A DNA stretch of 32,736 nucleotides. Origin: Azolla caroliniana. Lineage: Eukaryota; Plantae; Polypodiophyta. The notes below the pieces were generated by a model. It searched no databases, had not been told where the DNA came from, and saw only the letters and a program-made list of their open reading frames with translations. Of this stretch, positions 1-20,610 are shown piece by piece. Positions within the stretch are counted from its first letter, which is position 1, and each line of letters begins with the position of its first letter. The stretch covers positions 1 to 32,736 of the forward strand of contig JBHGNT010000348.1 in NCBI GenBank assembly GCA_043228905.1. The letters are read 5' to 3'. The translations under genes and the position numbers were made by a program.

Positions 1-151
1 ACCTGATCGTGCGTGCGTGCGTGCGTGTTGTGCGCGAGCGTGGAGAAATATGATTGAGAGGGTTATGAGAACGTCAAGACACCACACAGAGCACACCATT
101 TACATTTACGATGTTCAGAAAGTGTATAGTTGAAAAAGTTATGTACGTTCT

Positions 152-1188
152 TTAAAAGTGGCGAATACAAGCGCGTGGGCGAAGATCACATTGTTGGAGA
201 AGGCGAGAGGTTGCCACGCTTAGAAGTTGTTCCTCCTCACCGGCCTTGAAACGACGACGTTGTTCCTCATCTTGTCGTCCGGTCATGCGATAACGGCGCT
301 CGTCCTCCTCGCGCTCGCTACTGTCTCTCTCTCGCTCGGCATCCTCTTCCATTGACGACGTTCCCTTGACACTTGGTTATGGCGGTGACCATCATTGCGT
401 GCCTCTTCTCCGCTAATGTATAAGGCCTCGCGGAGGCGGTTGCAACGCTCTTCTACGGGGATTTGTTCCACGTTCCTGCAGCATCTTTCGGAGGGCCTTG
501 CATATCGGCTGATTTCATCCCAAGAGGTGCGACGGCTTCGTCCACGTTCTTCCTTCTCATTACGTTCTTGTAGGTGGCGGACCTGCCTATCGACGAAGTT
601 TTGGCACTCTTGCCTCAACTCTCGGTCTCGTGGCTCATCGCGATCGCGGCCGCGACGATCCCGTTCCTCTTCGGACTCTCTCTTGTTGTCTCTGCGACGT
701 CCTTCATCGAGGGATCCTTCACGACGTCGGTCGCGCCTCTCCTGCTCGACATCCTCCTCCCTGCGTCGATCGCGCCTCTCGTCACGTGACTCATCACGAT
801 CGCGACCGCGACGATCCCGTTCCTCTTCGGACTCTCTCTTGTTGTCTCCGTAGCGCCCCTCCTCGATGGACCCCTCGCGACGTCCCCCGCGCCTCTCCTC
901 ATCGAAATCCTCCTCCCTGCGTCGATCGCGCCTCTCCTCACGTGGCTCATCGCGATCGTGACTGCGACGATCCCGGTCCTCATCCGACTCTCTCTTGTTG
1001 TCTCTGTAGCGCCCCTCATCGATGGATCCCTCACGACGTCCGCTGCGCCTCTCCTCGTCGACATCCTCCTCCCTACGTCGATCGCGCCTCTCCTCTTCGC
1101 GATCCCGTCCTACAGATCTAGCATTGGCCGCGCCGCAGGCGGCTAGCATGATAACCGCCATGAGGAATATGATAGTGAGCTTCGCCAT
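152..1188 (-). pseudogene. Copy 1 of the Arg-rich 2S-albumin-like precursor, 1-bp frameshift near 349-350 (may be a sequencing error)
   Basis: 'ctcttccattg' versus consensus 'ctcttcccattg'. The ORF is split into 283..1188 and 152..352. Confidence 0.7.
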
Positions 1189-1254
1189 TGCTTGTGTTCG
1201 GAACTACCCCGGTTCTCTCTCCGCCTATTTGAGTGTGTCATGGTTGATCCACCC

Positions 1255-1388
1255 TTATATACACAAGGCCATGCATGTCTAGTACATGCATGTCCCTTCC
1301 ACGTCCATTCCTATAGACGTTAATGGCATGATCCATACTTGGGCCACGGAAGAGACCATTCACTTTTATCCACCCCCCTTTACGTGTC
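1255..1388 (-). promoter_or_regulatory. Promoter module of copy 1 (TATA, 2x RY, ABRE)
   Basis: Same motifs as copy 2, with one C missing near 1299-1300. Confidence 0.72.
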
Positions 1389-2311
1389 CAGGATCCTCCT
1401 GCTTCGACCTACCATATCACTAGCCCTATACTCACCTCCATCACACCAGGAGTGGGATTATGCACTTGGGCATTTCAAATCTACTAACCTATGGACGCTT
1501 CGTCCATATTGCAACGTAGACAGTATGTAACCTCATGATAGCCACCTACACATGTGATGCCATTGAGGTTGTAGAGTGCGTATGGGCCTCGTAAAACGAG
1601 GATAAGGTGGTGAGAAAAGGTTTTTAGGGTGTTGGTTCTCTCCACGAAAACGTTATCGGTGGTTGTGGCCACGAGGGGGTTTAGAATCCATTGCGACCAA
1701 CATACGGACGACGACACGCGTTTTCATTGTGATTACAAGATCCGTCGTCGTTGTGGACGCTGCAACCACCGGAGGAATATGAAGGTGGCACCATTCAAGG
1801 ACAACATTTCTAGGTGAAACATGCGTGGGTTGGTTGGTTCACACGATGATGAAAAATGGTAGATAGACATGGGAATTTCATGTGGAATCATGTTTGTAGT
1901 AGGAGTTACGATCAGCCACTACTATTGCGCACATCATGGTACGGCGAGACACGGCATTGTATGAGGGTGGCTTCAATACAACATTGTGATGGCATCGACG
2001 TTTGACGAGTTTCGCGTTGCTCGTGAGAGAGATAGCGATAGATGGATAGAGATAGATATAGGTAGGGTGGGAGTGGGTAGTGTGCGTGTGGGCACGTTAC
2101 CTAATCATGTGTGCGTGGAGTTTCATTTTGCTTGTGCAATGAGCGAGCGAGGGCACGCGACCTGATCGTGCGTGCGTGCGTGCGTGTTGTGCGCGAGCGT
2201 GGGAGAAATATGATTGAGAGGGTTATGAGAACGTCAAGACACCACACAGAGCACACCATTTACATTTACGATGTTCAGAAAGTGTATAGTTGAAAAAGTT
2301 ATGTACGTTCT

Positions 2312-3349
2312 TTAAAAGTGGCGAATACAAGCGCGTGGGCGAAGATCACATTGTTGGAGAAGGCGAGAGGTTGCCACGCTTAGAAGTTGTTCCTCCTCAC
2401 CGGCCTTGAAACGACGACGTTGTTCCTCATCTTGTCGTCCGGTCATGCGATAACGGCGCTCGTCCTCCTCGCGCTCGCTACTGTCTCTCTCTCGCTCGGC
2501 ATCCTCTTCCCATTGACGACGTTCCCTTGACACTTGGTTATGGCGGTGACCATCATTGCGTGCCTCTTCTCCGCTAATGTATAAGGCCTCGCGGAGGCGG
2601 TTGCAACGCTCTTCTACGGGGATTTGTTCCACGTTCCTGCAGCATCTTTCGGAGGGCCTTGCATATCGGCTGATTTCATCCCAAGAGGTGCGACGGCTTC
2701 GTCCACGTTCTTCCTTCTCATTACGTTCTTGTAGGTGGCGGACCTGCCTATCGACGAAGTTTTGGCACTCTTGCCTCAACTCTCGGTCTCGTGGCTCATC
2801 GCGATCGCGGCCGCGACGATCCCGTTCCTCTTCGGACTCTCTCTTGTTGTCTCTGCGACGTCCTTCATCGAGGGATCCTTCACGACGTCGGTCGCGCCTC
2901 TCCTGCTCGACATCCTCCTCCCTGCGTCGATCGCGCCTCTCGTCACGTGACTCATCACGATCGCGACCGCGACGATCCCGTTCCTCTTCGGACTCTCTCT
3001 TGTTGTCTCCGTAGCGCCCCTCCTCGATGGACCCCTCGCGACGTCCCCCGCGCCTCTCCTCATCGAAATCCTCCTCCCTGCGTCGATCGCGCCTCTCCTC
3101 ACGTGGCTCATCGCGATCGTGACTGCGACGATCCCGGTCCTCATCCGACTCTCTCTTGTTGTCTCTGTAGCGCCCCTCATCGATGGATCCCTCACGACGT
3201 CCGCTGCGCCTCTCCTCGTCGACATCCTCCTCCCTACGTCGATCGCGCCTCTCCTCTTCGCGATCCCGTCCTACAGATCTAGCATTGGCCGCGCCGCAGG
3301 CGGCTAGCATGATAACCGCCATGAGGAATATGATAGTGAGCTTCGCCAT
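2312..3349 (-). CDS. Copy 2: Arg/Glu/Asp-rich 2S-albumin-like (prolamin superfamily) storage protein precursor, 345 aa, intronless
   Basis: Signal peptide MAKLTIIFLMAVIMLAACGAANA and plant-type start context GCAATGGCG. Cys at 195, 236, 237, 249, 334, 341. Motifs ERCCRNVEQIPVEERCNRLREAL and RLLQQCDLRPRAC resemble the 2S-albumin CC..L..CxC.AL and LPxxCxL..C segments. RY/ABRE promoter directly upstream. Confidence 0.85.
   Translation of the reverse strand: MAKLTIIFLMAVIMLAACGAANARSVGRDREEERRDRRREEDVDEERRSGRREGSIDEGRYRDNKRESDEDRDRRSHDRDEPREERRDRRREEDFDEERRGGRREGSIEEGRYGDNKRESEEERDRRGRDRDESRDERRDRRREEDVEQERRDRRREGSLDEGRRRDNKRESEEERDRRGRDRDEPRDRELRQECQNFVDRQVRHLQERNEKEERGRSRRTSWDEISRYARPSERCCRNVEQIPVEERCNRLREALYISGEEARNDGHRHNQVSRERRQWEEDAERERDSSEREEDERRYRMTGRQDEEQRRRFKAGEEEQLLSVATSRLLQQCDLRPRACIRHF
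2789..3256 (-). repeat. Intragenic 156-bp (52-aa) repeat x3, present in every copy (copy 2 coordinates shown)
   Basis: DNKRES motif with Asn at residues 64, 116 and 168, exactly 52 apart. EERRDRRREED-like starts at residues 32, 84 and 136. Confidence 0.95.
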
Positions 3350-3415
3350 TGCTTGTGTTCGGAACTACCCCGGTTCTCTCTCCGCCTATTTGAGTGTGTC
3401 ATGGTTGATCCACCC

Positions 3416-3422
3416 TTATATA
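3416..3422 (-). promoter_or_regulatory. TATA box (TATATAA) of copy 2
   Basis: Minus strand GTATATAAGG, 67-73 bp upstream of the ATG. An initiator-like CTCA has its A at 3391, 31 bp from the TATA start. Confidence 0.75.
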
Positions 3423-3430
3423 CACAAGGC

Positions 3431-3453
3431 CATGCATGTCTAGTACATGCATG
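3431..3453. promoter_or_regulatory. Two RY elements CATGCATG (3431-3438, 3446-3453), B3-domain ABI3/FUS3/LEC2-type sites
   Basis: catgcatg-tctagta-catgcatg immediately upstream of the TATA box. RY is the established seed-storage-gene element. Confidence 0.8.
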
Positions 3454-3460
3454 TCCCTTC

Positions 3461-3550
3461 CCACGTCCATTCCTATAGACGTTAATGGCATGATCCATAC
3501 TTGGGCCACGGAAGAGACCATTCACTTTTATCCACCCCCCTTTACGTGTC
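3461..3550. promoter_or_regulatory. ABRE/ACGT-core cluster: ACGTGG on minus strand (3461-3466), GACGTT (3478-3483), TACGTGTC (3543-3550)
   Basis: TACGTGTC matches the ABRE consensus ACGTG(G/T)C and lies within about 100 bp of the RY pair. Confidence 0.65.
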
Positions 3551-4185
3551 CAGGATCCTCCTGCTTCGACCTACCATATCACTAGCCCTATACTCACCTC
3601 CATCACACCAGGAGTGGGATTATGCACTTGGGCATTTCAAATCTACTAACCTATGGACGCTTCGTCCATATTGCAACGTAGACAGTATGTAACCTCATGA
3701 TAGCCACCTACACATGTGATGCCATTGAGGTTGTAGAGTGCGTATGGGCCTCGTAAAACGAGGATAAGGTGGTGAGAAAAGGTTTTTAGGGTGTTGGTTC
3801 TCTCCACGAAAACGTTATCGGTGGTTGTGGCCACGAGGGGGTTTAGAATCCATTGCGACCAACATACGGACGACGACACGCGTTTTCATTGTGATTACAA
3901 GATCCGTCGTCGTTGTGGACGCTGCAACCACCGGAGGAATATGAAGGTGGCACCATTCAAGGACAACATTTCTAGGTGAAACATGCGTGGGTTGGTTGGT
4001 TCACACGATGATGAAAATGGTAGATAGACATGGGAATTTCATGTGGAATCATGTTTGTAGTAGGAGTTACGATCAGCCACTACTATTGCGCACATCATGG
4101 TACGGCGAGACACGGCATTGTATGAGGGTGGCTTCAATACAACATTGTGATGGCATCGACGTTTGACGAGTTTCGCGTTGCTCGT

Positions 4186-4347
4186 GAGAGAGATAGCGAT
4201 AGATGGATAGAGATAGATATAGGTAGGGTGGGAGTGGGTAGTGTGCGTGTGGGCACGTTACCTAATCATGTGTGCGTGGAGTTTCATTTTGCTTGTGCAA
4301 TGAGCGAGCGAGGGCACGCGACCTGATCGTGCGTGCGTGCGTGCGTG
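4186..4347 (+). repeat. Low-complexity spacer tract: degenerate GA/GATA run, G-runs, (GAGC)n and (CGTG)5; present in each unit
   Basis: gagagagatagcgatagatggatagagatagatatagg..., gagcgagcgag, cgtgcgtgcgtgcgtgcgtg read directly. Confidence 0.75.
4283..4288 (-). terminator. Candidate plant poly(A) near-upstream element AATGAA for copy 3 (same position in each unit)
   Basis: Minus-strand AAAATGAAA about 185 bp after the stop codon. I saw no AATAAA in the 3' flank. A TG-rich stretch and TGTAA lie between the stop and this site. Confidence 0.3.
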
Positions 4348-4472
4348 TTGTGCGCGAGCGTGGGAGAAATATGATTGAGAGGGTTATGAGAACGTCAAGA
4401 CACCACACAGAGCACACCATTTACATTTACGATGTTCAGAAAGTGTATAGTTGAAAAAGTTATGTACGTTCT

Positions 4473-5510
4473 TTAAAAGTGGCGAATACAAGCGCGTGGG
4501 CGAAGATCACATTGTTGGAGAAGGCGAGAGGTTGCCACGCTTAGAAGTTGTTCCTCCTCACCGGCCTTGAAACGACGACGTTGTTCCTCATCTTGTCGTC
4601 CGGTCATGCGATAACGGCGCTCGTCCTCCTCGCGCTCGCTACTGTCTCTCTCTCGCTCGGCATCCTCTTCCCATTGACGACGTTCCCTTGACACTTGGTT
4701 ATGGCGGTGACCATCATTGCGTGCCTCTTCTCCGCTAATGTATAAGGCCTCGCGGAGGCGGTTGCAACGCTCTTCTACGGGGATTTGTTCCACGTTCCTG
4801 CAGCATCTTTCGGAGGGCCTTGCATATCGGCTGATTTCATCCCAAGAGGTGCGACGGCTTCGTCCACGTTCTTCCTTCTCATTACGTTCTTGTAGGTGGC
4901 GGACCTGCCTATCGACGAAGTTTTGGCACTCTTGCCTCAACTCTCGGTCTCGTGGCTCATCGCGATCGCGGCCGCGACGATCCCGTTCCTCTTCGGACTC
5001 TCTCTTGTTGTCTCTGCGACGTCCTTCATCGAGGGATCCTTCACGACGTCGGTCGCGCCTCTCCTGCTCGACATCCTCCTCCCTGCGTCGATCGCGCCTC
5101 TCGTCACGTGACTCATCACGATCGCGACCGCGACGATCCCGTTCCTCTTCGGACTCTCTCTTGTTGTCTCCGTAGCGCCCCTCCTCGATGGACCCCTCGC
5201 GACGTCCCCCGCGCCTCTCCTCATCGAAATCCTCCTCCCTGCGTCGATCGCGCCTCTCCTCACGTGGCTCATCGCGATCGTGACTGCGACGATCCCGGTC
5301 CTCATCCGACTCTCTCTTGTTGTCTCTGTAGCGCCCCTCATCGATGGATCCCTCACGACGTCCGCTGCGCCTCTCCTCGTCGACATCCTCCTCCCTACGT
5401 CGATCGCGCCTCTCCTCTTCGCGATCCCGTCCTACAGATCTAGCATTGGCCGCGCCGCAGGCGGCTAGCATGATAACCGCCATGAGGAATATGATAGTGA
5501 GCTTCGCCAT
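4473..5510 (-). CDS. Copy 3: Arg-rich 2S-albumin-like precursor, 345 aa, intact
   Basis: Translation identical to copy 2. Confidence 0.85.
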   Translation of the reverse strand: MAKLTIIFLMAVIMLAACGAANARSVGRDREEERRDRRREEDVDEERRSGRREGSIDEGRYRDNKRESDEDRDRRSHDRDEPREERRDRRREEDFDEERRGGRREGSIEEGRYGDNKRESEEERDRRGRDRDESRDERRDRRREEDVEQERRDRRREGSLDEGRRRDNKRESEEERDRRGRDRDEPRDRELRQECQNFVDRQVRHLQERNEKEERGRSRRTSWDEISRYARPSERCCRNVEQIPVEERCNRLREALYISGEEARNDGHRHNQVSRERRQWEEDAERERDSSEREEDERRYRMTGRQDEEQRRRFKAGEEEQLLSVATSRLLQQCDLRPRACIRHF

Positions 5511-5576
5511 TGCTTGTGTTCGGAACTACCCCGGTTCTCTCTCCGCCTATTTGAGTGTGTCATGGTTGATCCACCC

Positions 5577-5711
5577 TTATATACACAAGGCCATGCATGT
5601 CTAGTACATGCATGTCCCTTCCCACGTCCATTCCTATAGACGTTAATGGCATGATCCATACTTGGGCCACGGAAGAGACCATTCACTTTTATCCACCCCC
5701 CTTTACGTGTC
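5577..5711 (-). promoter_or_regulatory. Promoter module of copy 3 (TATA, 2x RY, ABRE)
   Basis: Same motifs and offsets as copy 2. Confidence 0.72.
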
Positions 5712-6633
5712 CAGGATCCTCCTGCTTCGACCTACCATATCACTAGCCCTATACTCACCTCCATCACACCAGGAGTGGGATTATGCACTTGGGCATTTCA
5801 AATCTACTAACCTATGGACGCTTCGTCCATATTGCAACGTAGACAGTATGTAACCTCATGATAGCCACCTACACATGTGATGCCATTGAGGTTGTAGAGT
5901 GCGTATGGGCCTCGTAAAACGAGGATAAGGTGGTGAGAAAAGGTTTTTAGGGTGTTGGTTCTCTCCACGAAAACGTTATCGGTGGTTGTGGCCACGAGGG
6001 GGTTTAGAATCCATTGCGACCAACATACGGACGACGACACGCGTTTTCATTGTGATTACAAGATCCGTCGTCGTTGTGGACGCTGCAACCACCGGAGGAA
6101 TATGAAGGTGGCACCATTCAAGGACAACATTTCTAGGTGAAACATGCGTGGGTTGGTTGGTTCACACGATGATGAAAATGGTAGATAGACATGGGAATTT
6201 CATGTGGAATCATGTTTGTAGTAGGAGTTACGATCAGCCACTACTATTGCGCACATCATGGTACGGCGAGACACGGCATTGTATGAGGGTGGCTTCAATA
6301 CAACATTGTGATGGCATCGACGTTTGACGAGTTTCGCGTTGCTCGTGAGAGAGATAGCGATAGATGGATAGAGATAGATATAGGTAGGGTGGGAGTGGGT
6401 AGTGTGCGTGTGGGCACGTTACCTAATCATGTGTGCGTGGAGTTTCATTTTGCTTGTGCAATGAGCGAGCGAGGGCACGCGACCTGATCGTGCGTGCGTG
6501 CGTGCGTGTTGTGCGCGAGCGTGGGAGAAATATGATTGAGAGGGTTATGAGAACGTCAAGACACCACACAGAGCACACCATTTACATTTACGATGTTCAG
6601 AAAGTGTATAGTTGAAAAAGTTATGTACGTTCT

Positions 6634-7671
6634 TTAAAAGTGGCGAATACAAGCGCGTGGGCGAAGATCACATTGTTGGAGAAGGCGAGAGGTTGCCACG
6701 CTTAGAAGTTGTTCCTCCTCACCGGCCTTGAAACGACGACGTTGTTCCTCATCTTGTCGTCCGGTCATGCGATAACGGCGCTCGTCCTCCTCGCGCTCGC
6801 TACTGTCTCTCTCTCGCTCGGCATCCTCTTCCCATTGACGACGTTCCCTTGACACTTGGTTATGGCGGTGACCATCATTGCGTGCCTCTTCTCCGCTAAT
6901 GTATAAGGCCTCGCGGAGGCGGTTGCAACGCTCTTCTACGGGGATTTGTTCCACGTTCCTGCAGCATCTTTCGGAGGGCCTTGCATATCGGCTGATTTCA
7001 TCCCAAGAGGTGCGACGGCTTCGTCCACGTTCTTCCTTCTCATTACGTTCTTGTAGGTGGCGGACCTGCCTATCGACGAAGTTTTGGCACTCTTGCCTCA
7101 ACTCTCGGTCTCGTGGCTCATCGCGATCGCGGCCGCGACGATCCCGTTCCTCTTCGGACTCTCTCTTGTTGTCTCTGCGACGTCCTTCATCGAGGGATCC
7201 TTCACGACGTCGGTCGCGCCTCTCCTGCTCGACATCCTCCTCCCTGCGTCGATCGCGCCTCTCGTCACGTGACTCATCACGATCGCGACCGCGACGATCC
7301 CGTTCCTCTTCGGACTCTCTCTTGTTGTCTCCGTAGCGCCCCTCCTCGATGGACCCCTCGCGACGTCCCCCGCGCCTCTCCTCATCGAAATCCTCCTCCC
7401 TGCGTCGATCGCGCCTCTCCTCACGTGGCTCATCGCGATCGTGACTGCGACGATCCCGGTCCTCATCCGACTCTCTCTTGTTGTCTCTGTAGCGCCCCTC
7501 ATCGATGGATCCCTCACGACGTCCGCTGCGCCTCTCCTCGTCGACATCCTCCTCCCTACGTCGATCGCGCCTCTCCTCTTCGCGATCCCGTCCTACAGAT
7601 CTAGCATTGGCCGCGCCGCAGGCGGCTAGCATGATAACCGCCATGAGGAATATGATAGTGAGCTTCGCCAT
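6634..7671 (-). CDS. Copy 4: Arg-rich 2S-albumin-like precursor, 345 aa, intact
   Basis: Translation identical to copy 2. Confidence 0.85.
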   Translation of the reverse strand: MAKLTIIFLMAVIMLAACGAANARSVGRDREEERRDRRREEDVDEERRSGRREGSIDEGRYRDNKRESDEDRDRRSHDRDEPREERRDRRREEDFDEERRGGRREGSIEEGRYGDNKRESEEERDRRGRDRDESRDERRDRRREEDVEQERRDRRREGSLDEGRRRDNKRESEEERDRRGRDRDEPRDRELRQECQNFVDRQVRHLQERNEKEERGRSRRTSWDEISRYARPSERCCRNVEQIPVEERCNRLREALYISGEEARNDGHRHNQVSRERRQWEEDAERERDSSEREEDERRYRMTGRQDEEQRRRFKAGEEEQLLSVATSRLLQQCDLRPRACIRHF

Positions 7672-7737
7672 TGCTTGTGTTCGGAACTACCCCGGTTCTC
7701 TCTCCGCCTATTTGAGTGTGTCATGGTTGATCCACCC

Positions 7738-7872
7738 TTATATACACAAGGCCATGCATGTCTAGTACATGCATGTCCCTTCCCACGTCCATTCCTATAG
7801 ACGTTAATGGCATGATCCATACTTGGGCCACGGAAGAGACCATTCACTTTTATCCACCCCCCTTTACGTGTC
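7738..7872 (-). promoter_or_regulatory. Promoter module of copy 4 (TATA, 2x RY, ABRE)
   Basis: Same motifs and offsets as copy 2. Confidence 0.72.
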
Positions 7873-8794
7873 CAGGATCCTCCTGCTTCGACCTACCATA
7901 TCACTAGCCCTATACTCACCTCCATCACACCAGGAGTGGGATTATGCACTTGGGCATTTCAAATCTACTAACCTATGGACGCTTCGTCCATATTGCAACG
8001 TAGACAGTATGTAACCTCATGATAGCCACCTACACATGTGATGCCATTGAGGTTGTAGAGTGCGTATGGGCCTCGTAAAACGAGGATAAGGTGGTGAGAA
8101 AAGGTTTTTAGGGTGTTGGTTCTCTCCACGAAAACGTTATCGGTGGTTGTGGCCACGAGGGGGTTTAGAATCCATTGCGACCAACATACGGACGACGACA
8201 CGCGTTTTCATTGTGATTACAAGATCCGTCGTCGTTGTGGACGCTGCAACCACCGGAGGAATATGAAGGTGGCACCATTCAAGGACAACATTTCTAGGTG
8301 AAACATGCGTGGGTTGGTTGGTTCACACGATGATGAAAATGGTAGATAGACATGGGAATTTCATGTGGAATCATGTTTGTAGTAGGAGTTACGATCAGCC
8401 ACTACTATTGCGCACATCATGGTACGGCGAGACACGGCATTGTATGAGGGTGGCTTCAATACAACATTGTGATGGCATCGACGTTTGACGAGTTTCGCGT
8501 TGCTCGTGAGAGAGATAGCGATAGATGGATAGAGATAGATATAGGTAGGGTGGGAGTGGGTAGTGTGCGTGTGGGCACGTTACCTAATCATGTGTGCGTG
8601 GAGTTTCATTTTGCTTGTGCAATGAGCGAGCGAGGGCACGCGACCTGATCGTGCGTGCGTGCGTGCGTGTTGTGCGCGAGCGTGGGAGAAATATGATTGA
8701 GAGGGTTATGAGAACGTCAAGACACCACACAGAGCACACCATTTACATTTACGATGTTCAGAAAGTGTATAGTTGAAAAAGTTATGTACGTTCT

Positions 8795-9831
8795 TTAAAA
8801 GTGGCGAATACAAGCGCGTGGGCGAAGATCACATTGTTGGAGAAGGCGAGAGGTTGCCACGCTTAGAAGTTGTTCCTCCTCACCGGCCTTGAAACGACGA
8901 CGTTGTTCCTCATCTTGTCGTCCGGTCATGCGATAACGGCGCTCGTCCTCCTCGCGCTCGCTACTGTCTCTCTCTCGCTCGGCATCCTCTTCCCATTGAC
9001 GACGTTCCCTTGACACTTGGTTATGGCGGTGACCATCATTGCGTGCCTCTTCTCCGCTAATGTATAAGGCCTCGCGGAGGCGGTTGCAACGCTCTTCTAC
9101 GGGGATTTGTTCCACGTTCCTGCAGCATCTTTCGGAGGGCCTTGCATATCGGCTGATTTCATCCCAAGAGGTGCGACGGCTTCGTCCACGTTCTTCCTTC
9201 TCATTACGTTCTTGTAGGTGGCGGACCTGCCTATCGACGAAGTTTTGGCACTCTTGCCTCAACTCTCGGTCTCGTGGCTCATCGCGATCGCGGCCGCGAC
9301 GATCCCGTTCCTCTTCGGACTCTCTCTTGTTGTCTCTGCGACGTCCTTCATCGAGGGATCCTTCACGACGTCGGTCGCGCCTCTCCTGCTCGACATCCTC
9401 CTCCCTGCGTCGATCGCGCCTCTCGTCACGTGACTCATCACGATCGCGACCGCGACGATCCCGTTCCTCTTCGGACTCTCTCTTGTTGTCTCCGTAGCGC
9501 CCCTCCTCGATGGACCCCTCGCGACGTCCCCCGCGCCTCTCCTCATCGAAATCCTCCTCCCTGCGTCGATCGCGCCTCTCCTCACGTGGCTCATCGCGAT
9601 CGTGACTGCGACGATCCCGGTCCTCATCCGACTCTCTCTTGTTGTCTCTGTAGCGCCCCTCATCGATGGATCCCTCACGACGTCCGCTGCGCCTCTCCTC
9701 GTCGACATCCTCCTCCTACGTCGATCGCGCCTCTCCTCTTCGCGATCCCGTCCTACAGATCTAGCATTGGCCGCGCCGCAGGCGGCTAGCATGATAACCG
9801 CCATGAGGAATATGATAGTGAGCTTCGCCAT
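8795..9831 (-). pseudogene. Copy 5, 1-bp frameshift near 9715-9716 (may be a sequencing error)
   Basis: 'cctcctcctacg' versus consensus 'cctcctccctacg'. The frame is lost after about residue 39. Confidence 0.7.
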
Positions 9832-9897
9832 TGCTTGTGTTCGGAACTACCCCGGTTCTCTCTCCGCCTATTTGAGTGTGTCATGGTTGATCCACCC

Positions 9898-10032
9898 TTA
9901 TATACACAAGGCCATGCATGTCTAGTACATGCATGTCCCTTCCCACGTCCATTCCTATAGACGTTAATGGCATGATCCATACTTGGGCCACGGAAGAGAC
10001 CATTCACTTTTATCCACCCCCCTTTACGTGTC
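9898..10032 (-). promoter_or_regulatory. Promoter module of copy 5 (TATA, 2x RY, ABRE)
   Basis: Same motifs and offsets as copy 2. Confidence 0.72.
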
Positions 10033-10954
10033 CAGGATCCTCCTGCTTCGACCTACCATATCACTAGCCCTATACTCACCTCCATCACACCAGGAGTGGG
10101 ATTATGCACTTGGGCATTTCAAATCTACTAACCTATGGACGCTTCGTCCATATTGCAACGTAGACAGTATGTAACCTCATGATAGCCACCTACACATGTG
10201 ATGCCATTGAGGTTGTAGAGTGCGTATGGGCCTCGTAAAACGAGGATAAGGTGGTGAGAAAAGGTTTTTAGGGTGTTGGTTCTCTCCACGAAAACGTTAT
10301 CGGTGGTTGTGGCCACGAGGGGGTTTAGAATCCATTGCGACCAACATACGGACGACGACACGCGTTTTCATTGTGATTACAAGATCCGTCGTCGTTGTGG
10401 ACGCTGCAACCACCGGAGGAATATGAAGGTGGCACCATTCAAGGACAACATTTCTAGGTGAAACATGCGTGGGTTGGTTGGTTCACACGATGATGAAAAT
10501 GGTAGATAGACATGGGAATTTCATGTGGAATCATGTTTGTAGTAGGAGTTACGATCAGCCACTACTATTGCGCACATCATGGTACGGCGAGACACGGCAT
10601 TGTATGAGGGTGGCTTCAATACAACATTGTGATGGCATCGACGTTTGACGAGTTTCGCGTTGCTCGTGAGAGAGATAGCGATAGATGGATAGAGATAGAT
10701 ATAGGTAGGGTGGGAGTGGGTAGTGTGCGTGTGGGCACGTTACCTAATCATGTGTGCGTGGAGTTTCATTTTGCTTGTGCAATGAGCGAGCGAGGGCACG
10801 CGACCTGATCGTGCGTGCGTGCGTGCGTGTTGTGCGCGAGCGTGGGAGAAATATGATTGAGAGGGTTATGAGAACGTCAAGACACCACACAGAGCACACC
10901 ATTTACATTTACGATGTTCAGAAAGTGTATAGTTGAAAAAGTTATGTACGTTCT

Positions 10955-11966
10955 TTAAAAGTGGCGAATACAAGCGCGTGGGCGAAGATCACATTGTTGG
11001 AGAAGGCGAGAGGTTGCCACGCTTAGAAGTTGTTCCTCCTCACCGGCCTTGAAACGACGACGTTGTTCCTCATCTTGTCGTCCGGTCATGCGATAACGGC
11101 GCTCGTCCTCCTCGCGCTCGCTACTGTCTCTCTCCTCGCTCGGCATCCTCTTCCCATTGACGACGTTCCCTTGACACTTGGTTATGGCGGTGACCATCAT
11201 TGCGTGCCTCTTCTCCGCTAATGTATAAGGCCTCGCGGAGGCGGTTGCAACGCTCTTCTACGGGGATTTGTTCCACGTTCCTGCAGCATCTTTCGGAGGG
11301 CCTTGCATATCGGCTGATTTCATCCCAAGAGGTGCGACGGCTTCGTCCACGTTCTTCCTTCTCATTACGTTCTTGTAGGTGGCGGACCTGCCTATCGACG
11401 AAGTTTTGGCACTCTTGCCTCAACTCTCGGTCTCGTGGCTCATCGCGATCGCGGCCGCGACGATCCCGTTCCTCTTCGGACTCTCTCTTGTTGTCTCTGC
11501 GACGTCCTTCATCGAGGGATCCTTCACGACGTCGGTCGCGCCTCTCCTGCTCGACATCCTCCTCCCTGCGTCGATCGCGCCTCTCGTCACGTGACTCATC
11601 ACGATCGCGACCGCGACGATCCCGTTCCTCTTCGGACTCTCTCTTGTACCCCTCGCGACGTCCCCCGCGCCTCTCCTCATCGAAATCCTCCTCCCTGCGT
11701 CGATCGCGCCTCTCCTCACGTGGCTCATCGCGATCGTGACTGCGACGATCCCGGTCCTCATCCGACTCTCTCTTGTTGTCTCTGTAGCGCCCCTCATCGA
11801 TGGATCCCTCACGACGTCCGCTGCGCCTCTCCTCGTCGACATCCTCCTCCCTACGTCGATCGCGCCTCTCCTCTTCGCGATCCCGTCCTACAGATCTAGC
11901 ATTGGCCGCGCCGCAGGCGGCTAGCATGATAACCGCCATGAGGAATATGATAGTGAGCTTCGCCAT
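10955..11966 (-). pseudogene. Copy 6, in-frame 27-bp deletion (junction 11647/11648) plus 1-bp insertion near 11134-11135
   Basis: 'ctcttgt|acccctc' lacks tgtctccgtagcgcccctcctcgatgg. 'tctctcctcgctc' has an extra C. The ORF ends at 281 aa, before the last two Cys. Confidence 0.7.
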
Positions 11967-12032
11967 TGCTTGTGTTCGGAACTACCCCGGTTCTCTCTCC
12001 GCCTATTTGAGTGTGTCATGGTTGATCCACCC

Positions 12033-12167
12033 TTATATACACAAGGCCATGCATGTCTAGTACATGCATGTCCCTTCCCACGTCCATTCCTATAGACGTT
12101 AATGGCATGATCCATACTTGGGCCACGGAAGAGACCATTCACTTTTATCCACCCCCCTTTACGTGTC
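12033..12167 (-). promoter_or_regulatory. Promoter module of copy 6 (TATA, 2x RY, ABRE)
   Basis: Same motifs and offsets as copy 2. Confidence 0.72.
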
Positions 12168-13089
12168 CAGGATCCTCCTGCTTCGACCTACCATATCACT
12201 AGCCCTATACTCACCTCCATCACACCAGGAGTGGGATTATGCACTTGGGCATTTCAAATCTACTAACCTATGGACGCTTCGTCCATATTGCAACGTAGAC
12301 AGTATGTAACCTCATGATAGCCACCTACACATGTGATGCCATTGAGGTTGTAGAGTGCGTATGGGCCTCGTAAAACGAGGATAAGGTGGTGAGAAAAGGT
12401 TTTTAGGGTGTTGGTTCTCTCCACGAAAACGTTATCGGTGGTTGTGGCCACGAGGGGGTTTAGAATCCATTGCGACCAACATACGGACGACGACACGCGT
12501 TTTCATTGTGATTACAAGATCCGTCGTCGTTGTGGACGCTGCAACCACCGGAGGAATATGAAGGTGGCACCATTCAAGGACAACATTTCTAGGTGAAACA
12601 TGCGTGGGTTGGTTGGTTCACACGATGATGAAAATGGTAGATAGACATGGGAATTTCATGTGGAATTATGTTTGTAGTAGGAGTTACGATCAGCCACTAC
12701 TATTGCGCACATCATGGTACGGCGAGACACGGCATTGTATGAGGGTGGCTTCAATACAACATTGTGATGGCATCGACGTTTGACGAGTTTCGCGTTGCTC
12801 GTGAGAGAGATAGCGATAGATGGATAGAGATAGATATAGGTAGGGTGGGAGTGGGTAGTGTGCGTGTGGGCACGTTACCTAATCATGTGTGCGTGGAGTT
12901 TCATTTTGCTTGTGCAATGAGCGAGCGAGGGCACGCGACCTGATCGTGCGTGCGTGCGTGCATGTTGTGCGCGAGCGTGGGAGAAATATGATTGAGAGGG
13001 TTATGAGAACGTCAAGACACCACACAGAGCACACCATTTACATTTACGATGTTCAGAAAGTGTATAGTTGAAAAAGTTATGTACGTTCT

Positions 13090-14127
13090 TTAAAAGTGGC
13101 GAATACAAGCGCGTGGGCGAAGATCACATTGTTGGAGAAGGCGAGAGGTTGCCACGCTTAGAAGTTGTTCCTCCTCACCGGCCTTGAAACGACGACGTTG
13201 TTCCTCATCTTGTCGTCCGGTCATGCGATAACGGCGCTCGTCCTCCTCGCGCTCGCTACTGTCTCTCTCTCGCTCGGCATCCTCTTCCCATTGACGACGT
13301 TCCCTTGACACTTGGTTATGGCGGTGACCATCATTGCGTGCCTCTTCTCCGCTAATGTATAAGGCCTCGCGGAGGCGGTTGCAACGCTCTTCTACGGGGA
13401 TTTGTTCCACGTTCCTGCAGCATCTTTCGGAGGGCCTTGCATATCGGCTGATTTCATCCCAAGAGGTGCGACGGCTTCGTCCACGTTCTTCCTTCTCATT
13501 ACGTTCTTGTAGGTGGCGGACCTGCCTATCGACGAAGTTTTGGCACTCTTGCCTCAACTCTCGGTCTCGTGGCTCATCGCGATCGCGGCCGCGACGATCC
13601 CGTTCCTCTTCGGACTCTCTCTTGTTGTCTCTGCGACGTCCTTCATCGAGGGATCCTTCACGACGTCGGTCGCGCCTCTCCTGCTCGACATCCTCCTCCC
13701 TGCGTCGATCGCGCCTCTCGTCACGTGACTCATCACGATCGCGACCGCGACGATCCCGTTCCTCTTCGGACTCTCTCTTGTTGTCTCCGTAGCGCCCCTC
13801 CTCGATGGACCCCTCGCGACGTCCCCCGCGCCTCTCCTCATCGAAATCCTCCTCCCTGCGTCGATCGCGCCTCTCCTCACGTGGCTCATCGCGATCGTGA
13901 CTGCGACGATCCCGGTCCTCATCCGACTCTCTCTTGTTGTCTCTGTAGCGCCCCTCATCGATGGATCCCTCACGACGTCCGCTGCGCCTCTCCTCGTCGA
14001 CATCCTCCTCCCTACGTCGATCGCGCCTCTCCTCTTCGCGATCCCGTCCTACAGATCTAGCATTGGCCGCGCCGCAGGCGGCTAGCATGATAACCGCCAT
14101 GAGGAATATGATAGTGAGCTTCGCCAT
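13090..14127 (-). CDS. Copy 7: Arg-rich 2S-albumin-like precursor, 345 aa, intact
   Basis: Translation identical to copy 2. Confidence 0.85.
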   Translation of the reverse strand: MAKLTIIFLMAVIMLAACGAANARSVGRDREEERRDRRREEDVDEERRSGRREGSIDEGRYRDNKRESDEDRDRRSHDRDEPREERRDRRREEDFDEERRGGRREGSIEEGRYGDNKRESEEERDRRGRDRDESRDERRDRRREEDVEQERRDRRREGSLDEGRRRDNKRESEEERDRRGRDRDEPRDRELRQECQNFVDRQVRHLQERNEKEERGRSRRTSWDEISRYARPSERCCRNVEQIPVEERCNRLREALYISGEEARNDGHRHNQVSRERRQWEEDAERERDSSEREEDERRYRMTGRQDEEQRRRFKAGEEEQLLSVATSRLLQQCDLRPRACIRHF

Positions 14128-14193
14128 TGCTTGTGTTCGGAACTACCCCGGTTCTCTCTCCGCCTATTTGAGTGTGTCATGGTTGATCCACCC

Positions 14194-14328
14194 TTATATA
14201 CACAAGGCCATGCATGTCTAGTACATGCATGTCCCTTCCCACGTCCATTCCTATAGACGTTAATGGCATGATCCATACTTGGGCCACGGAAGAGACCATT
14301 CACTTTTATCCACCCCCCTTTACGTGTC
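14194..14328 (-). promoter_or_regulatory. Promoter module of copy 7 (TATA, 2x RY, ABRE)
   Basis: Same motifs and offsets as copy 2. Confidence 0.72.
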
Positions 14329-15250
14329 CAGGATCCTCCTGCTTCGACCTACCATATCACTAGCCCTATACTCACCTCCATCACACCAGGAGTGGGATTA
14401 TGCACTTGGGCATTTCAAATCTACTAACCTATGGACGCTTCGTCCATATTGCAACGTAGACAGTATGTAACCTCATGATAGCCACCTACACATGTGATGC
14501 CATTGAGGTTGTAGAGTGCGTATGGGCCTCGTAAAACGAGGATAAGGTGGTGAGAAAAGGTTTTTAGGGTGTTGGTTCTCTCCACGAAAACGTTATCGGT
14601 GGTTGTGGCCACGAGGGGGTTTAGAATCCATTGCGACCAACATACGGACGACGACACGCGTTTTCATTGTGATTACAAGATCCGTCGTCGTTGTGGACGC
14701 TGCAACCACCGGAGGAATATGAAGGTGGCACCATTCAAGGACAACATTTCTAGGTGAAACATGCGTGGGTTGGTTGGTTCACACGATGATGAAAATGGTA
14801 GATAGACATGGGAATTTCATGTGGAATCATGTTTGTAGTAGGAGTTACGATCAGCCACTACTATTGCGCACATCATGGTACGGCGAGACACGGCATTGTA
14901 TGAGGGTGGCTTCAATACAACATTGTGATGGCATCGACGTTTGACGAGTTTCGCGTTGCTCGTGAGAGAGATAGCGATAGATGGATAGAGATAGATATAG
15001 GTAGGGTGGGAGTGGGTAGTGTGCGTGTGGGCACGTTACCTAATCATGTGTGCGTGGAGTTTCATTTTGCTTGTGCAATGAGCGAGCGAGGGCACGCGAC
15101 CTGATCGTGCGTGCGTGCGTGCATGTTGTGCGCGAGCGTGGGAGAAATATGATTGAGAGGGTTATGAGAACGTCAAGACACCACACAGAGCACACCATTT
15201 ACATTTACGATGTTCAGAAAGTGTATAGTTGAAAAAGTTATGTACGTTCT

Positions 15251-16288
15251 TTAAAAGTGGCGAATACAAGCGCGTGGGCGAAGATCACATTGTTGGAGAA
15301 GGCGAGAGGTTGCCACGCTTAGAAGTTGTTCCTCCTCACCGGCCTTGAAACGACGACGTTGTTCCTCATCTTGTCGTCCGGTCATGCGATAACGGCGCTC
15401 GTCCTCCTCGCGCTCGCTACTGTCTCTCTCTCGCTCGGCATCCTCTTCCCATTGACGACGTTCCCTTGACACTTGGTTATGGCGGTGACCATCATTGCGT
15501 GCCTCTTCTCCGCTAATGTATAAGGCCTCGCGGAGGCGGTTGCAACGCTCTTCTACGGGGATTTGTTCCACGTTCCTGCAGCATCTTTCGGAGGGCCTTG
15601 CATATCGGCTGATTTCATCCCAAGAGGTGCGACGGCTTCGTCCACGTTCTTCCTTCTCATTACGTTCTTGTAGGTGGCGGACCTGCCTATCGACGAAGTT
15701 TTGGCACTCTTGCCTCAACTCTCGGTCTCGTGGCTCATCGCGATCGCGGCCGCGACGATCCCGTTCCTCTTCGGACTCTCTCTTGTTGTCTCTGCGACGT
15801 CCTTCATCGAGGGATCCTTCACGACGTCGGTCGCGCCTCTCCTGCTCGACATCCTCCTCCCTGCGTCGATCGCGCCTCTCGTCACGTGACTCATCACGAT
15901 CGCGACCGCGACGATCCCGTTCCTCTTCGGACTCTCTCTTGTTGTCTCCGTAGCGCCCCTCCTCGATGGACCCCTCGCGACGTCCCCCGCGCCTCTCCTC
16001 ATCGAAATCCTCCTCCCTGCGTCGATCGCGCCTCTCCTCACGTGGCTCATCGCGATCGTGACTGCGACGATCCCGGTCCTCATCCGACTCTCTCTTGTTG
16101 TCTCTGTAGCGCCCCTCATCGATGGATCCCTCACGACGTCCGCTGCGCCTCTCCTCGTCGACATCCTCCTCCCTACGTCGATCGCGCCTCTCCTCTTCGC
16201 GATCCCGTCCTACAGATCTAGCATTGGCCGCGCCGCAGGCGGCTAGCATGATAACCGCCATGAGGAATATGATAGTGAGCTTCGCCAT
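15251..16288 (-). CDS. Copy 8: Arg-rich 2S-albumin-like precursor, 345 aa, intact
   Basis: Translation identical to copy 2. Confidence 0.85.
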   Translation of the reverse strand: MAKLTIIFLMAVIMLAACGAANARSVGRDREEERRDRRREEDVDEERRSGRREGSIDEGRYRDNKRESDEDRDRRSHDRDEPREERRDRRREEDFDEERRGGRREGSIEEGRYGDNKRESEEERDRRGRDRDESRDERRDRRREEDVEQERRDRRREGSLDEGRRRDNKRESEEERDRRGRDRDEPRDRELRQECQNFVDRQVRHLQERNEKEERGRSRRTSWDEISRYARPSERCCRNVEQIPVEERCNRLREALYISGEEARNDGHRHNQVSRERRQWEEDAERERDSSEREEDERRYRMTGRQDEEQRRRFKAGEEEQLLSVATSRLLQQCDLRPRACIRHF

Positions 16289-16354
16289 TGCTTGTGTTCG
16301 GAACTACCCCGGTTCTCTCTCCGCCTATTTGAGTGTGTCATGGTTGATCCACCC

Positions 16355-16489
16355 TTATATACACAAGGCCATGCATGTCTAGTACATGCATGTCCCTTCC
16401 CACGTCCATTCCTATAGACGTTAATGGCATGATCCATACTTGGGCCACGGAAGAGACCATTCACTTTTATCCACCCCCCTTTACGTGTC
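16355..16489 (-). promoter_or_regulatory. Promoter module of copy 8 (TATA, 2x RY, ABRE)
   Basis: Same motifs and offsets as copy 2. Confidence 0.72.
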
Positions 16490-17411
16490 CAGGATCCTCC
16501 TGCTTCGACCTACCATATCACTAGCCCTATACTCACCTCCATCACACCAGGAGTGGGATTATGCACTTGGGCATTTCAAATCTACTAACCTATGGACGCT
16601 TCGTCCATATTGCAACGTAGACAGTATGTAACCTCATGATAGCCACCTACACATGTGATGCCATTGAGGTTGTAGAGTGCGTATGGGCCTCGTAAAACGA
16701 GGATAAGGTGGTGAGAAAAGGTTTTTAGGGTGTTGGTTCTCTCCACGAAAACGTTATCGGTGGTTGTGGCCACGAGGGGGTTTAGAATCCATTGCGACCA
16801 ACATACGGACGACGACACGCGTTTTCATTGTGATTACAAGATCCGTCGTCGTTGTGGACGCTGCAACCACCGGAGGAATATGAAGGTGGCACCATTCAAG
16901 GACAACATTTCTAGGTGAAACATGCGTGGGTTGGTTGGTTCACACGATGATGAAAATGGTAGATAGACATGGGAATTTCATGTGGAATCATGTTTGTAGT
17001 AGGAGTTACGATCAGCCACTACTATTGCGCACATCATGGTACGGCGAGACACGGCATTGTATGAGGGTGGCTTCAATACAACATTGTGATGGCATCGACG
17101 TTTGACGAGTTTCGCGTTGCTCGTGAGAGAGATAGCGATAGATGGATAGAGATAGATATAGGTAGGGTGGGAGTGGGTAGTGTGCGTGTGGGCACGTTAC
17201 CTAATCATGTGTGCGTGGAGTTTCATTTTGCTTGTGCAATGAGCGAGCGAGGGCACGCGACCTGATCGTGCGTGCGTGCGTGCATGTTGTGCGCGAGCGT
17301 GGGAGAAATATGATTGAGAGGGTTATGAGAACGTCAAGACACCACACAGAGCACACCATTTACATTTACGATGTTCAGAAAGTGTATAGTTGAAAAAGTT
17401 ATGTACGTTCT

Positions 17412-18449
17412 TTAAAAGTGGCGAATACAAGCGCGTGGGCGAAGATCACATTGTTGGAGAAGGCGAGAGGTTGCCACGCTTAGAAGTTGTTCCTCCTCAC
17501 CGGCCTTGAAACGACGACGTTGTTCCTCATCTTGTCGTCCGGTCATGCGATAACGGCGCTCGTCCTCCTCGCGCTCGCTACTGTCTCTCTCTCGCTCGGC
17601 ATCCTCTTCCCATTGACGACGTTCCCTTGACACTTGGTTATGGCGGTGACCATCATTGCGTGCCTCTTCTCCGCTAATGTATAAGGCCTCGCGGAGGCGG
17701 TTGCAACGCTCTTCTACGGGGATTTGTTCCACGTTCCTGCAGCATCTTTCGGAGGGCCTTGCATATCGGCTGATTTCATCCCAAGAGGTGCGACGGCTTC
17801 GTCCACGTTCTTCCTTCTCATTACGTTCTTGTAGGTGGCGGACCTGCCTATCGACGAAGTTTTGGCACTCTTGCCTCAACTCTCGGTCTCGTGGCTCATC
17901 GCGATCGCGGCCGCGACGATCCCGTTCCTCTTCGGACTCTCTCTTGTTGTCTCTGCGACGTCCTTCATCGAGGGATCCTTCACGACGTCGGTCGCGCCTC
18001 TCCTGCTCGACATCCTCCTCCCTGCGTCGATCGCGCCTCTCGTCACGTGACTCATCACGATCGCGACCGCGACGATCCCGTTCCTCTTCGGACTCTCTCT
18101 TGTTGTCTCCGTAGCGCCCCTCCTCGATGGACCCCTCGCGACGTCCCCCGCGCCTCTCCTCATCGAAATCCTCCTCCCTGCGTCGATCGCGCCTCTCCTC
18201 ACGTGGCTCATCGCGATCGTGACTGCGACGATCCCGGTCCTCATCCGACTCTCTCTTGTTGTCTCTGTAGCGCCCCTCATCGATGGATCCCTCACGACGT
18301 CCGCTGCGCCTCTCCTCGTCGACATCCTCCTCCCTACGTCGATCGCGCCTCTCCTCTTCGCGATCCCGTCCTACAGATCTAGCATTGGCCGCGCCGCAGG
18401 CGGCTAGCATGATAACCGCCATGAGGAATATGATAGTGAGCTTCGCCAT
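17412..18449 (-). CDS. Copy 9: Arg-rich 2S-albumin-like precursor, 345 aa, intact
   Basis: Translation identical to copy 2. Confidence 0.85.
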   Translation of the reverse strand: MAKLTIIFLMAVIMLAACGAANARSVGRDREEERRDRRREEDVDEERRSGRREGSIDEGRYRDNKRESDEDRDRRSHDRDEPREERRDRRREEDFDEERRGGRREGSIEEGRYGDNKRESEEERDRRGRDRDESRDERRDRRREEDVEQERRDRRREGSLDEGRRRDNKRESEEERDRRGRDRDEPRDRELRQECQNFVDRQVRHLQERNEKEERGRSRRTSWDEISRYARPSERCCRNVEQIPVEERCNRLREALYISGEEARNDGHRHNQVSRERRQWEEDAERERDSSEREEDERRYRMTGRQDEEQRRRFKAGEEEQLLSVATSRLLQQCDLRPRACIRHF

Positions 18450-18515
18450 TGCTTGTGTTCGGAACTACCCCGGTTCTCTCTCCGCCTATTTGAGTGTGTC
18501 ATGGTTGATCCACCC

Positions 18516-18650
18516 TTATATACACAAGGCCATGCATGTCTAGTACATGCATGTCCCTTCCCACGTCCATTCCTATAGACGTTAATGGCATGATCCATAC
18601 TTGGGCCACGGAAGAGACCATTCACTTTTATCCACCCCCCTTTACGTGTC
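18516..18650 (-). promoter_or_regulatory. Promoter module of copy 9 (TATA, 2x RY, ABRE)
   Basis: Same motifs and offsets as copy 2. Confidence 0.72.
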
Positions 18651-19572
18651 CAGGATCCTCCTGCTTCGACCTACCATATCACTAGCCCTATACTCACCTC
18701 CATCACACCAGGAGTGGGATTATGCACTTGGGCATTTCAAATCTACTAACCTATGGACGCTTCGTCCATATTGCAACGTAGACAGTATGTAACCTCATGA
18801 TAGCCACCTACACATGTGATGCCATTGAGGTTGTAGAGTGCGTATGGGCCTCGTAAAACGAGGATAAGGTGGTGAGAAAAGGTTTTTAGGGTGTTGGTTC
18901 TCTCCACGAAAACGTTATCGGTGGTTGTGGCCACGAGGGGGTTTAGAATCCATTGCGACCAACATACGGACGACGACACGCGTTTTCATTGTGATTACAA
19001 GATCCGTCGTCGTTGTGGACGCTGCAACCACCGGAGGAATATGAAGGTGGCACCATTCAAGGACAACATTTCTAGGTGAAACATGCGTGGGTTGGTTGGT
19101 TCACACGATGATGAAAATGGTAGATAGACATGGGAATTTCATGTGGAATCATGTTTGTAGTAGGAGTTACGATCAGCCACTACTATTGCGCACATCATGG
19201 TACGGCGAGACACGGCATTGTATGAGGGTGGCTTCAATACAACATTGTGATGGCATCGACGTTTGACGAGTTTCGCGTTGCTCGTGAGAGAGATAGCGAT
19301 AGATGGATAGAGATAGATATAGGTAGGGTGGGAGTGGGTAGTGTGCGTGTGGGCACGTTACCTAATCATGTGTGCGTGGAGTTTCATTTTGCTTGTGCAA
19401 TGAGCGAGCGAGGGCACGCGACCTGATCGTGCGTGCGTGCGTGCATGTTGTGCGCGAGCGTGGGAGAAATATGATTGAGAGGGTTATGAGAACGTCAAGA
19501 CACCACACAGAGCACACCATTTACATTTACGATGTTCAGAAAGTGTATAGTTGAAAAAGTTATGTACGTTCT

Positions 19573-20610
19573 TTAAAAGTGGCGAATACAAGCGCGTGGG
19601 CGAAGATCACATTGTTGGAGAAGGCGAGAGGTTGCCACGCTTAGAAGTTGTTCCTCCTCACCGGCCTTGAAACGACGACGTTGTTCCTCATCTTGTCGTC
19701 CGGTCATGCGATAACGGCGCTCGTCCTCCTCGCGCTCGCTACTGTCTCTCTCTCGCTCGGCATCCTCTTCCCATTGACGACGTTCCCTTGACACTTGGTT
19801 ATGGCGGTGACCATCATTGCGTGCCTCTTCTCCGCTAATGTATAAGGCCTCGCGGAGGCGGTTGCAACGCTCTTCTACGGGGATTTGTTCCACGTTCCTG
19901 CAGCATCTTTCGGAGGGCCTTGCATATCGGCTGATTTCATCCCAAGAGGTGCGACGGCTTCGTCCACGTTCTTCCTTCTCATTACGTTCTTGTAGGTGGC
20001 GGACCTGCCTATCGACGAAGTTTTGGCACTCTTGCCTCAACTCTCGGTCTCGTGGCTCATCGCGATCGCGGCCGCGACGATCCCGTTCCTCTTCGGACTC
20101 TCTCTTGTTGTCTCTGCGACGTCCTTCATCGAGGGATCCTTCACGACGTCGGTCGCGCCTCTCCTGCTCGACATCCTCCTCCCTGCGTCGATCGCGCCTC
20201 TCGTCACGTGACTCATCACGATCGCGACCGCGACGATCCCGTTCCTCTTCGGACTCTCTCTTGTTGTCTCCGTAGCGCCCCTCCTCGATGGACCCCTCGC
20301 GACGTCCCCCGCGCCTCTCCTCATCGAAATCCTCCTCCCTGCGTCGATCGCGCCTCTCCTCACGTGGCTCATCGCGATCGTGACTGCGACGATCCCGGTC
20401 CTCATCCGACTCTCTCTTGTTGTCTCTGTAGCGCCCCTCATCGATGGATCCCTCACGACGTCCGCTGCGCCTCTCCTCGTCGACATCCTCCTCCCTACGT
20501 CGATCGCGCCTCTCCTCTTCGCGATCCCGTCCTACAGATCTAGCATTGGCCGCGCCGCAGGCGGCTAGCATGATAACCGCCATGAGGAATATGATAGTGA
20601 GCTTCGCCAT
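19573..20610 (-). CDS. Copy 10: Arg-rich 2S-albumin-like precursor, 345 aa, intact
   Basis: Translation identical to copy 2. Confidence 0.85.
   Translation of the reverse strand: MAKLTIIFLMAVIMLAACGAANARSVGRDREEERRDRRREEDVDEERRSGRREGSIDEGRYRDNKRESDEDRDRRSHDRDEPREERRDRRREEDFDEERRGGRREGSIEEGRYGDNKRESEEERDRRGRDRDESRDERRDRRREEDVEQERRDRRREGSLDEGRRRDNKRESEEERDRRGRDRDEPRDRELRQECQNFVDRQVRHLQERNEKEERGRSRRTSWDEISRYARPSERCCRNVEQIPVEERCNRLREALYISGEEARNDGHRHNQVSRERRQWEEDAERERDSSEREEDERRYRMTGRQDEEQRRRFKAGEEEQLLSVATSRLLQQCDLRPRACIRHF

Follow-up and report, generated by a model that had tools for sequence, protein, structure and literature searches.

The window, by which we mean the whole 32,736-bp stretch of Azolla caroliniana DNA analyzed here, is occupied from end to end (1..32736, minus strand) by a tandem array of 15 head-to-tail copies of one gene, with a unit of 2,161 bp. 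This array, hereafter array A, fills the entire contig (C348; JBHGNT010000348.1 of assembly GCA_043228905.1), with start codons at positions 1188, 3349, 5510, 7671, 9831, 11966, 14127, 16288, 18449, 20610, 22771, 24932, 27093, 29254, and 31415. Eleven of the 15 copies encode an identical 345-aa protein. Among the 14 full units, seven equal the consensus, six differ from it at 1–3 sites, and one carries a 27-bp deletion; a single substitution is common to six adjacent copies at one end of the window, as expected from local spreading. Four copies are broken, one by a nonsense mutation; in the other three a single base is inserted or lost within a homopolymer or dinucleotide run, possibly through read error. 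Tandem amplification is the most unusual feature of the locus.

The copy at 2312..3349 (minus strand, read 3349->2312) is an intronless open reading frame encoding 345 aa, with a mass of 42.7 kDa and an Arg content of 26.7%. The preliminary description proposed a signal peptide at residues 1–23 (3281..3349, minus), and hydropathy bears this prediction out: residues 4–18 form a hydrophobic core (mean Kyte-Doolittle value 2.86), followed by an A-N-A|R end at 23/24. This predicted signal peptide is conserved in a paralogous array (array B, below; dN/dS 0.17). Residues 24–187 (2789..3280, minus) form an Arg/Glu/Asp repeat region of 164 aa, close to the length of about 165 aa claimed earlier, in which 74% of residues are R, E, or D and none is Cys. 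The region comprises three 52-aa units, encoded by three copies of a 156-bp unit at 2790–3256 with 88% matches, and has a net charge of -5 and a nitrogen content of 23% by mass. Each 52-aa unit holds one candidate site (DN|KR; Asn 64, 116, and 168) at which an asparaginyl endopeptidase might cleave.

The remainder of the protein (residues 188–345; 2315..2788, minus) is a six-Cys domain of the prolamin superfamily, as judged from the PF00234 profile, the Cys pattern, and profile alignment. Its cysteines lie at positions 195, 236, 237, 249, 334, and 341, which a profile alignment to the Moringa 2S albumin equates with canonical C2, C3, C4, C6, C7, and C8, respectively. A Cys-patterned domain had been proposed at 195–341; the domain is present, but its core Cys number six rather than eight, and long charged inserts lie within it, in the linker (~207–230) and the loop (~257–322). 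In alignments, the latter insert (residues 257–322; 2384..2581, minus) occupies the position that a passage in PMC2570561 gives for the 2S "hypervariable" loop. Arg carries four nitrogen atoms, and an average protein is about 16% nitrogen by mass; the Azolla protein is 22.1% nitrogen, with a net charge of -5 over 322 aa, and four compact homologues are 18.8–19.9% nitrogen.

A short 3' UTR (2285..2311, minus) follows the gene, and an RNA-type contig from a relative stops nearby with a poly(A)-like tail: in run X18, 284 contigs map to the gene, and a T-run before 2285 forms a loose end of this kind, although X17–X19 are runs from related organisms whose RNA label is a guess, and X18 tells neither tissue nor expression level. 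Two overlapping reading frames, of 145 aa (2577–3014, plus) and 149 aa (2776–3225, minus, in a shifted frame), recur in nearly every unit and likely just mirror the biased codon usage of the charged repeats.

The upstream region resembles a seed-storage promoter. A TATA box lies at 3416..3422 (minus; -73 from the ATG), preceded by two RY palindromes (CATGCATG; 3431..3453, at -89 and -104) that align with RY sites of the array B promoter, and by ACGT-core (ABRE-like) sites at 3462..3548 (-117 and -199), a short motif that is weak on its own. A stretch of 200 bp holds four RY hexamers, where the null model gives a mean of 0.19 (P 0.0002). All four paralogue promoters tested contain RY sites (P 0.0002, 0.0014, 0.047, and <0.0002) along with ACGT cores and a TATA box, and close alignment between the promoters of A and B is confined to the neighborhood of the RY and TATA elements, the remaining spacer being unalignable. 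The spacer is uncovered in X17–X19, which we do not count as evidence because the spacer may have diverged. The combination of RY and ACGT elements is presented as a seed-storage signature in a passage of PMC2770497, and part of PMC5379062 reports expression of fern ABI3/LEC2 genes in mature sporangia.

The proposal in the preliminary description of a 2S-albumin-related domain of the prolamin superfamily was upheld by profile searches. PF00234 matched residues 188–345 at 22.7 bits, marginally above its cut-off of 21.7, while the whole protein scored 19.9 bits, under the cut-off. A fern-family profile matched 6vj0_A, a 2S albumin from Moringa, at E 3e-6 to 4.7e-6, the six Cys falling in register, and in two fern-profile searches 16 of 18 and 10 of 11 PDB rows were named 2S albumins or cereal inhibitors, with 6vj0_A, present in both lists, counted as a 2S albumin on the strength of a passage in PMC4366206. 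The nearest named relatives are fern proteins from Adiantum (125–168 aa; BLASTP to the fern-family protein P0011, E 8e-9), and the six Cys are retained without exception across the 10 proteins aligned. The earlier suggestion that the termini resemble peanut Ara h 2 did not hold: fern profiles match Ara h 2 only at E 0.016–0.84, against 3e-6 to 4.7e-6 for Moringa, and a special kinship to the peanut protein was rejected. Matches in the Atlas (0.80–0.87) are leads only.

The domain departs from canonical 2S albumins in two respects. The eight-Cys motif C..C../..CC..CxC..C..C, described as characteristic of all 2S albumins in a passage of PMC4366206, is not present, there being six core Cys only; the first Cys of CxC is replaced (E-R-C), and C195 is the first Cys of the mature protein. 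Since C1–C5 is one of the canonical 2S disulfides (PMC2570561, in part), loss of these two residues would remove one whole bond and leave three. The precursor, at 42.7 kDa, also lies outside the 18–21 kDa that the same part of PMC2570561 gives for 2S albumin precursors. The unusual length claimed in the preliminary description was thus confirmed at 345 aa, and no annotated homologue with the same architecture was found beyond this genome and close relatives: a homologue search with region 188–345 restricted to lengths of 189–604 aa matched none of 414 candidates, and a search without a length limit gave two matches. As judged from sequence, the protein belongs to a fern six-Cys branch of the 2S scaffold that lacks the C1–C5 disulfide; it is not a canonical 2S albumin, yet it likely works like one.

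Structure searches lent this placement no further support. The AlphaFold (AF2) models of residues 188–345, built from 4- and 11-sequence alignments, were all-helical, with the charged insert as long helices, and weak (pTM 0.49 and 0.56). Neither matched the prolamin fold in Foldseek or VIA-align, in which the best hits were unrelated chains (VIA Z 4.6 and 5.7) and the lipid-transfer chain DIR1 scored within noise (Z 3.6); a phmmer search of the PDB with just the domain likewise returned no matches. The prolamin fold proposed earlier was therefore recovered by profile but not by structure, and because both predictions were weak and nothing matched, support for the fold comes from sequence.

Array A extends far beyond the window. 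In the 523-Mb assembly, which has 22 chromosome-scale contigs (C22 is 12.8 Mb and C23 0.6 Mb), a 24-mer from the array A unit has 183 exact matches, mostly on unplaced contigs. A variant unit of 2,200 bp on C59 (L007–L014) encodes 358 aa; it carries one additional repeat of 13 aa and differs by 13 substitutions. The C59 run is broken several times by ~10–16 kb of non-array DNA. Degenerate A copies (85–97%) lie amid LTR elements at C12:12,980,000-13,114,563, where orientation switches near 13.063 Mb and the last copy runs into a 100-N gap, which suggests that this locus is the likely site of array A. A very high-copy repeat lies between degenerate copies (L018:6600-7900; summed contig depth up to ~770,000 in X5), and a lone 186-bp fragment of the gene's 3' end (96%) occurs on a different chromosome, at C9:12,949,973-12,950,158 (L006). 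Rfam gave no matches in two units.

A second array, B, was found via the database fragment P0001. Its unit of 1,649–1,655 bp encodes a 261-aa paralogue on contigs C109, C113, C162, C238, C304, C315, C316, and others (for example, L038:2890-3675, minus), and its 24-mer has 427 exact matches in the assembly. The B protein has one repeat unit against three in A, with an extra Cys (56) in its repeat. Eleven B units differ at 0–2 sites, and degenerate B copies lie at C3 10.38–10.41 Mb. Low-copy relatives include a His/Glu-rich protein on C3 (L049:8411-9265, minus, and L036) close to P0002, of which a near-identical copy on C432 is perhaps a haplotig, and a 223-aa protein with poly-Glu runs on C4 (L050:5483-6154, minus). 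Family sizes run from 125–168 aa through 223, ~256, and 261 to 345–358 aa. Such stepwise growth through charged segments at the N-terminus, linker, and loop is more in keeping with bulk storage than with a single dedicated peptide.

Together, the two arrays span ~1.1 Mb, or 0.2% of the assembly (183 x ~2.2 kb plus 427 x ~1.65 kb). Of the copies sampled, 28 of 34 are intact in A and 33 of 36 in B, leaving 9 of 70 broken overall, though intact copies in a young or homogenized array do not prove that most are transcribed. In a control with Cupin, 78 matches were obtained from 96 candidates, all scored, and none formed a tandem array on unplaced contigs; 23 of the 78 Cupin_1 matches cluster at C8:17.10-18.02 Mb in both orientations, possibly as a germin-like cluster.

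Contig depths in four DNA runs from four studies also point to high dosage. In X5, an array-type contig reaches a depth of 8,672 against 39.6, 32.7, and 37.4 for divergent C12 copies (ratio ~240); array versus locus-specific depths are ~3,300 versus 5–9 in X14, which carries another species label, 365 versus 3–4 in X1, and 4,500–7,100 versus 6–13 in X16, where the low-depth contigs are less exact. The resulting ratios of roughly 100- to 650-fold support real amplification in the hundreds rather than an exact count: contig depth does not equal copy number, estimates vary several-fold among the four runs, and X5 may come from the very material used for the assembly.

Arrays A and B have diverged, with dS 0.87, dN 0.17, and dN/dS 0.19 overall (0.17 in the repeats and 0.07 at the C-terminus, by simple counting with gapped codons excluded). 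When array A is compared with an RNA-type contig from a relative, synonymous changes account for 12 of 18 altered codons, among 19 of 21 differences listed. Near-uniform arrays separated by dS 0.87 are expected from concerted evolution, and near-identity within arrays with divergence between them is the pattern observed.

With moderate confidence, we interpret the window as a tandem array encoding an Arg/Glu/Asp-rich six-Cys relative of 2S albumins that serves as a spore nitrogen store and was amplified for dosage. The occurrence of 2S storage proteins in fern spores (PMC4973428, in part, citing Rodin and Rask 1990) is consistent with this role. Under this storage reading, ABI3/LEC2-type B3 factors would activate the copies during spore maturation, and the signal peptide would route the protein into the ER. 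Three predicted disulfides (C2–C3, C4–C7, and C6–C8) would hold a small albumin core destined for vacuolar deposition, with Arg neutralized by Glu and Asp to give a soluble, charge-balanced cargo of 22% nitrogen. Peptidase_C13 genes are present in the genome, and a vacuolar asparaginyl endopeptidase would probably clip the protein at Asn; the linker Asn lies at different places in A and B. Breakdown at germination would then feed the gametophyte and embryo, and the uniformity of each array would result from unequal crossover and gene conversion.

Could the copy number itself be an artefact, the assembly having multiplied one gene or a handful of them? Unplaced contigs hold most of the copies, the chromosomal locus stops at a 100-N gap, and overlaps and haplotigs could inflate the unit count. 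However, the depth ratios in four studies, the head-to-tail unit joint found in X14 under another species label, the block-wise variants, and the distinct 2,200-bp unit type already largely refute this explanation, leaving it highly improbable. A fairly unlikely alternative accepts the amplification but makes it satellite-like, the arrays being mostly silenced passengers spread by unequal crossover, with few working copies. On the flanks of both arrays, degenerate copies are interspersed with LTR elements, insertions break the C59 run, and some sampled copies are broken; plant tandem repeats also often attract silencing. Yet two paralogues as divergent as A and B have both been amplified while keeping coding constraint and proximal RY and TATA elements in a spacer that otherwise cannot be aligned, the array is present under two species labels, and three of the four broken window copies resemble read errors, all of which speak against it.

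Alternatively, the product rather than the array may have been misread. As a polyprotein of the PV100 or PawS1 type, the precursor would be cut by asparaginyl endopeptidase into 41–52-aa Arg/Glu peptides that act on their own, in defense or otherwise. The exact 52-aa spacing of the repeat Asn residues, retention of one in array B at position 78, the available Peptidase_C13 genes, and a predicted fragment size near that of PV100 Arg/Glu peptides, which are 4–5 kDa and described as cytotoxic in part of bioRxiv 10.1101/2020.05.26.118075, would all suit such processing. We nonetheless regard it as rather improbable: the repeats are Cys-free and net neutral, unlike folded buried peptides, their number varies freely (array A has three and array B one, and C59 adds a 13-aa unit), and the linker and loop inside the albumin core have the same charged composition, which fits bulk storage better. 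One Asn per unit could simply reflect unit duplication. Less probable still, the protein may act chiefly as a polyampholyte with a protective or structural role, such as a desiccation protectant, a condensate, or a matrix of the spore apparatus, again under ABI3-type control. The net-neutral, low-complexity region would be appropriate to it, and LEA genes are also driven by RY/ABRE promoters according to a passage in PMC5379062, but the signal peptide and albumin core indicate a vacuolar storage route, and the preference for Arg over Lys maximizes nitrogen.

If the storage reading is correct, a more specific and tentative proposal can be made for this heterosporous fern. Each megasporocarp houses a single megaspore (PMC12825409, in part). 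We hypothesize that one haploid nucleus has to fill it and that copy number compensates. More than 600 copies in two independently homogenized arrays, encoding an Arg/acid albumin under RY/ABI3 control, could solve the provisioning of a one-nucleus megaspore. This would represent convergence on seed provisioning through gene dosage rather than many-celled storage tissue. A spore reserve would also test whether the seed-maturation switch (B3 factors acting on RY sites) and albumin storage predate seeds, and whether that program was reused in independently evolved heterospory. A search of the assembly found no nifD contig, a result that has no bearing on a symbiont.

Comparison with known storage proteins places the Azolla protein nearest to ferns. 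The compact Adiantum PF00234 proteins (for example, GOP47_0008549, KAI5076484.1, annotated as "hypothetical") share the six Cys, the PS.RCC, RC, and SRLLQQC.LRP..C motifs, and a signal peptide, but at 125–168 aa they are without long charged repeats and amount to ~9 records, a record rather than genome count, against hundreds here. Angiosperm 2S albumins (Moringa Mo-CBP3/4, napin, and Ara h 2) likewise are intronless, carry a signal peptide, and share the RY/ACGT/TATA promoter and the CC and C-terminal Cys pattern, whereas the Azolla protein has six Cys rather than eight, 42.7 kDa rather than 18–21 kDa, an Arg/Glu/Asp-rich rather than Gln-rich composition, and hundreds of uniform copies rather than a small multigene family. 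Matteuccin is said to have been described by Rodin and Rask in 1990 as the 2.2S spore storage protein of ostrich fern; as a 2S-related fern protein it likely has the same role, a likeness drawn by description alone. The N-terminal segments of PV100 are likewise Arg/Glu-rich, with Asn at comparable intervals, but its host is a vicilin and not an albumin, while PawS1 shares the albumin host. The Azolla protein contains neither a Cys-rich nor a cyclic peptide. Cyanophycin, a non-ribosomal bacterial polymer (multi-L-arginyl-poly-aspartate), follows the same design, in which acidic residues offset Arg to give a neutral store of nitrogen, by analogy rather than homology.

The genomic arrangement has its closest parallels in rDNA, histone arrays, and zein/gliadin clusters, which likewise consist of head-to-tail units, uniform within and divergent between arrays, with high dosage of a bulk product. 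Unlike rDNA, the Azolla array is a protein-coding storage gene whose unit has no Rfam match, yet its dosage is more typical of ribosomal DNA than of protein-coding genes. Cereal zein and gliadin clusters are smaller, more divergent, and richer in pseudogenes; an Arabidopsis array of cysteine-rich-peptide genes would be a further parallel, for which our literature search gave no match. Uniform arrays with hundreds of intact protein-coding copies are rare.

What is new here is the protein architecture and the genomic arrangement; the 2S/prolamin scaffold is known. The literature searched, which left subscription journals mostly outside, contained no description of such an array or protein, though supplements and newer water-fern genome papers could hold one. 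The parts of PMC6786969, PMC8386757, PMC12825409, PMC13434465, and PMC13496105 that answer to the terms "albumin" and storage protein, where these were asked, include no such passage. Short-read assemblies collapse such arrays, which may explain why protein databases show them only as "hypothetical" fragments of 44–46 aa. JGI/IMG "hypothetical proteins" of 44–81 aa (P0001, P0003–P0009, and P0023–P0027) match the C-terminal ends of A and B genes and probably stem from gene calls on host DNA within metagenome contigs.
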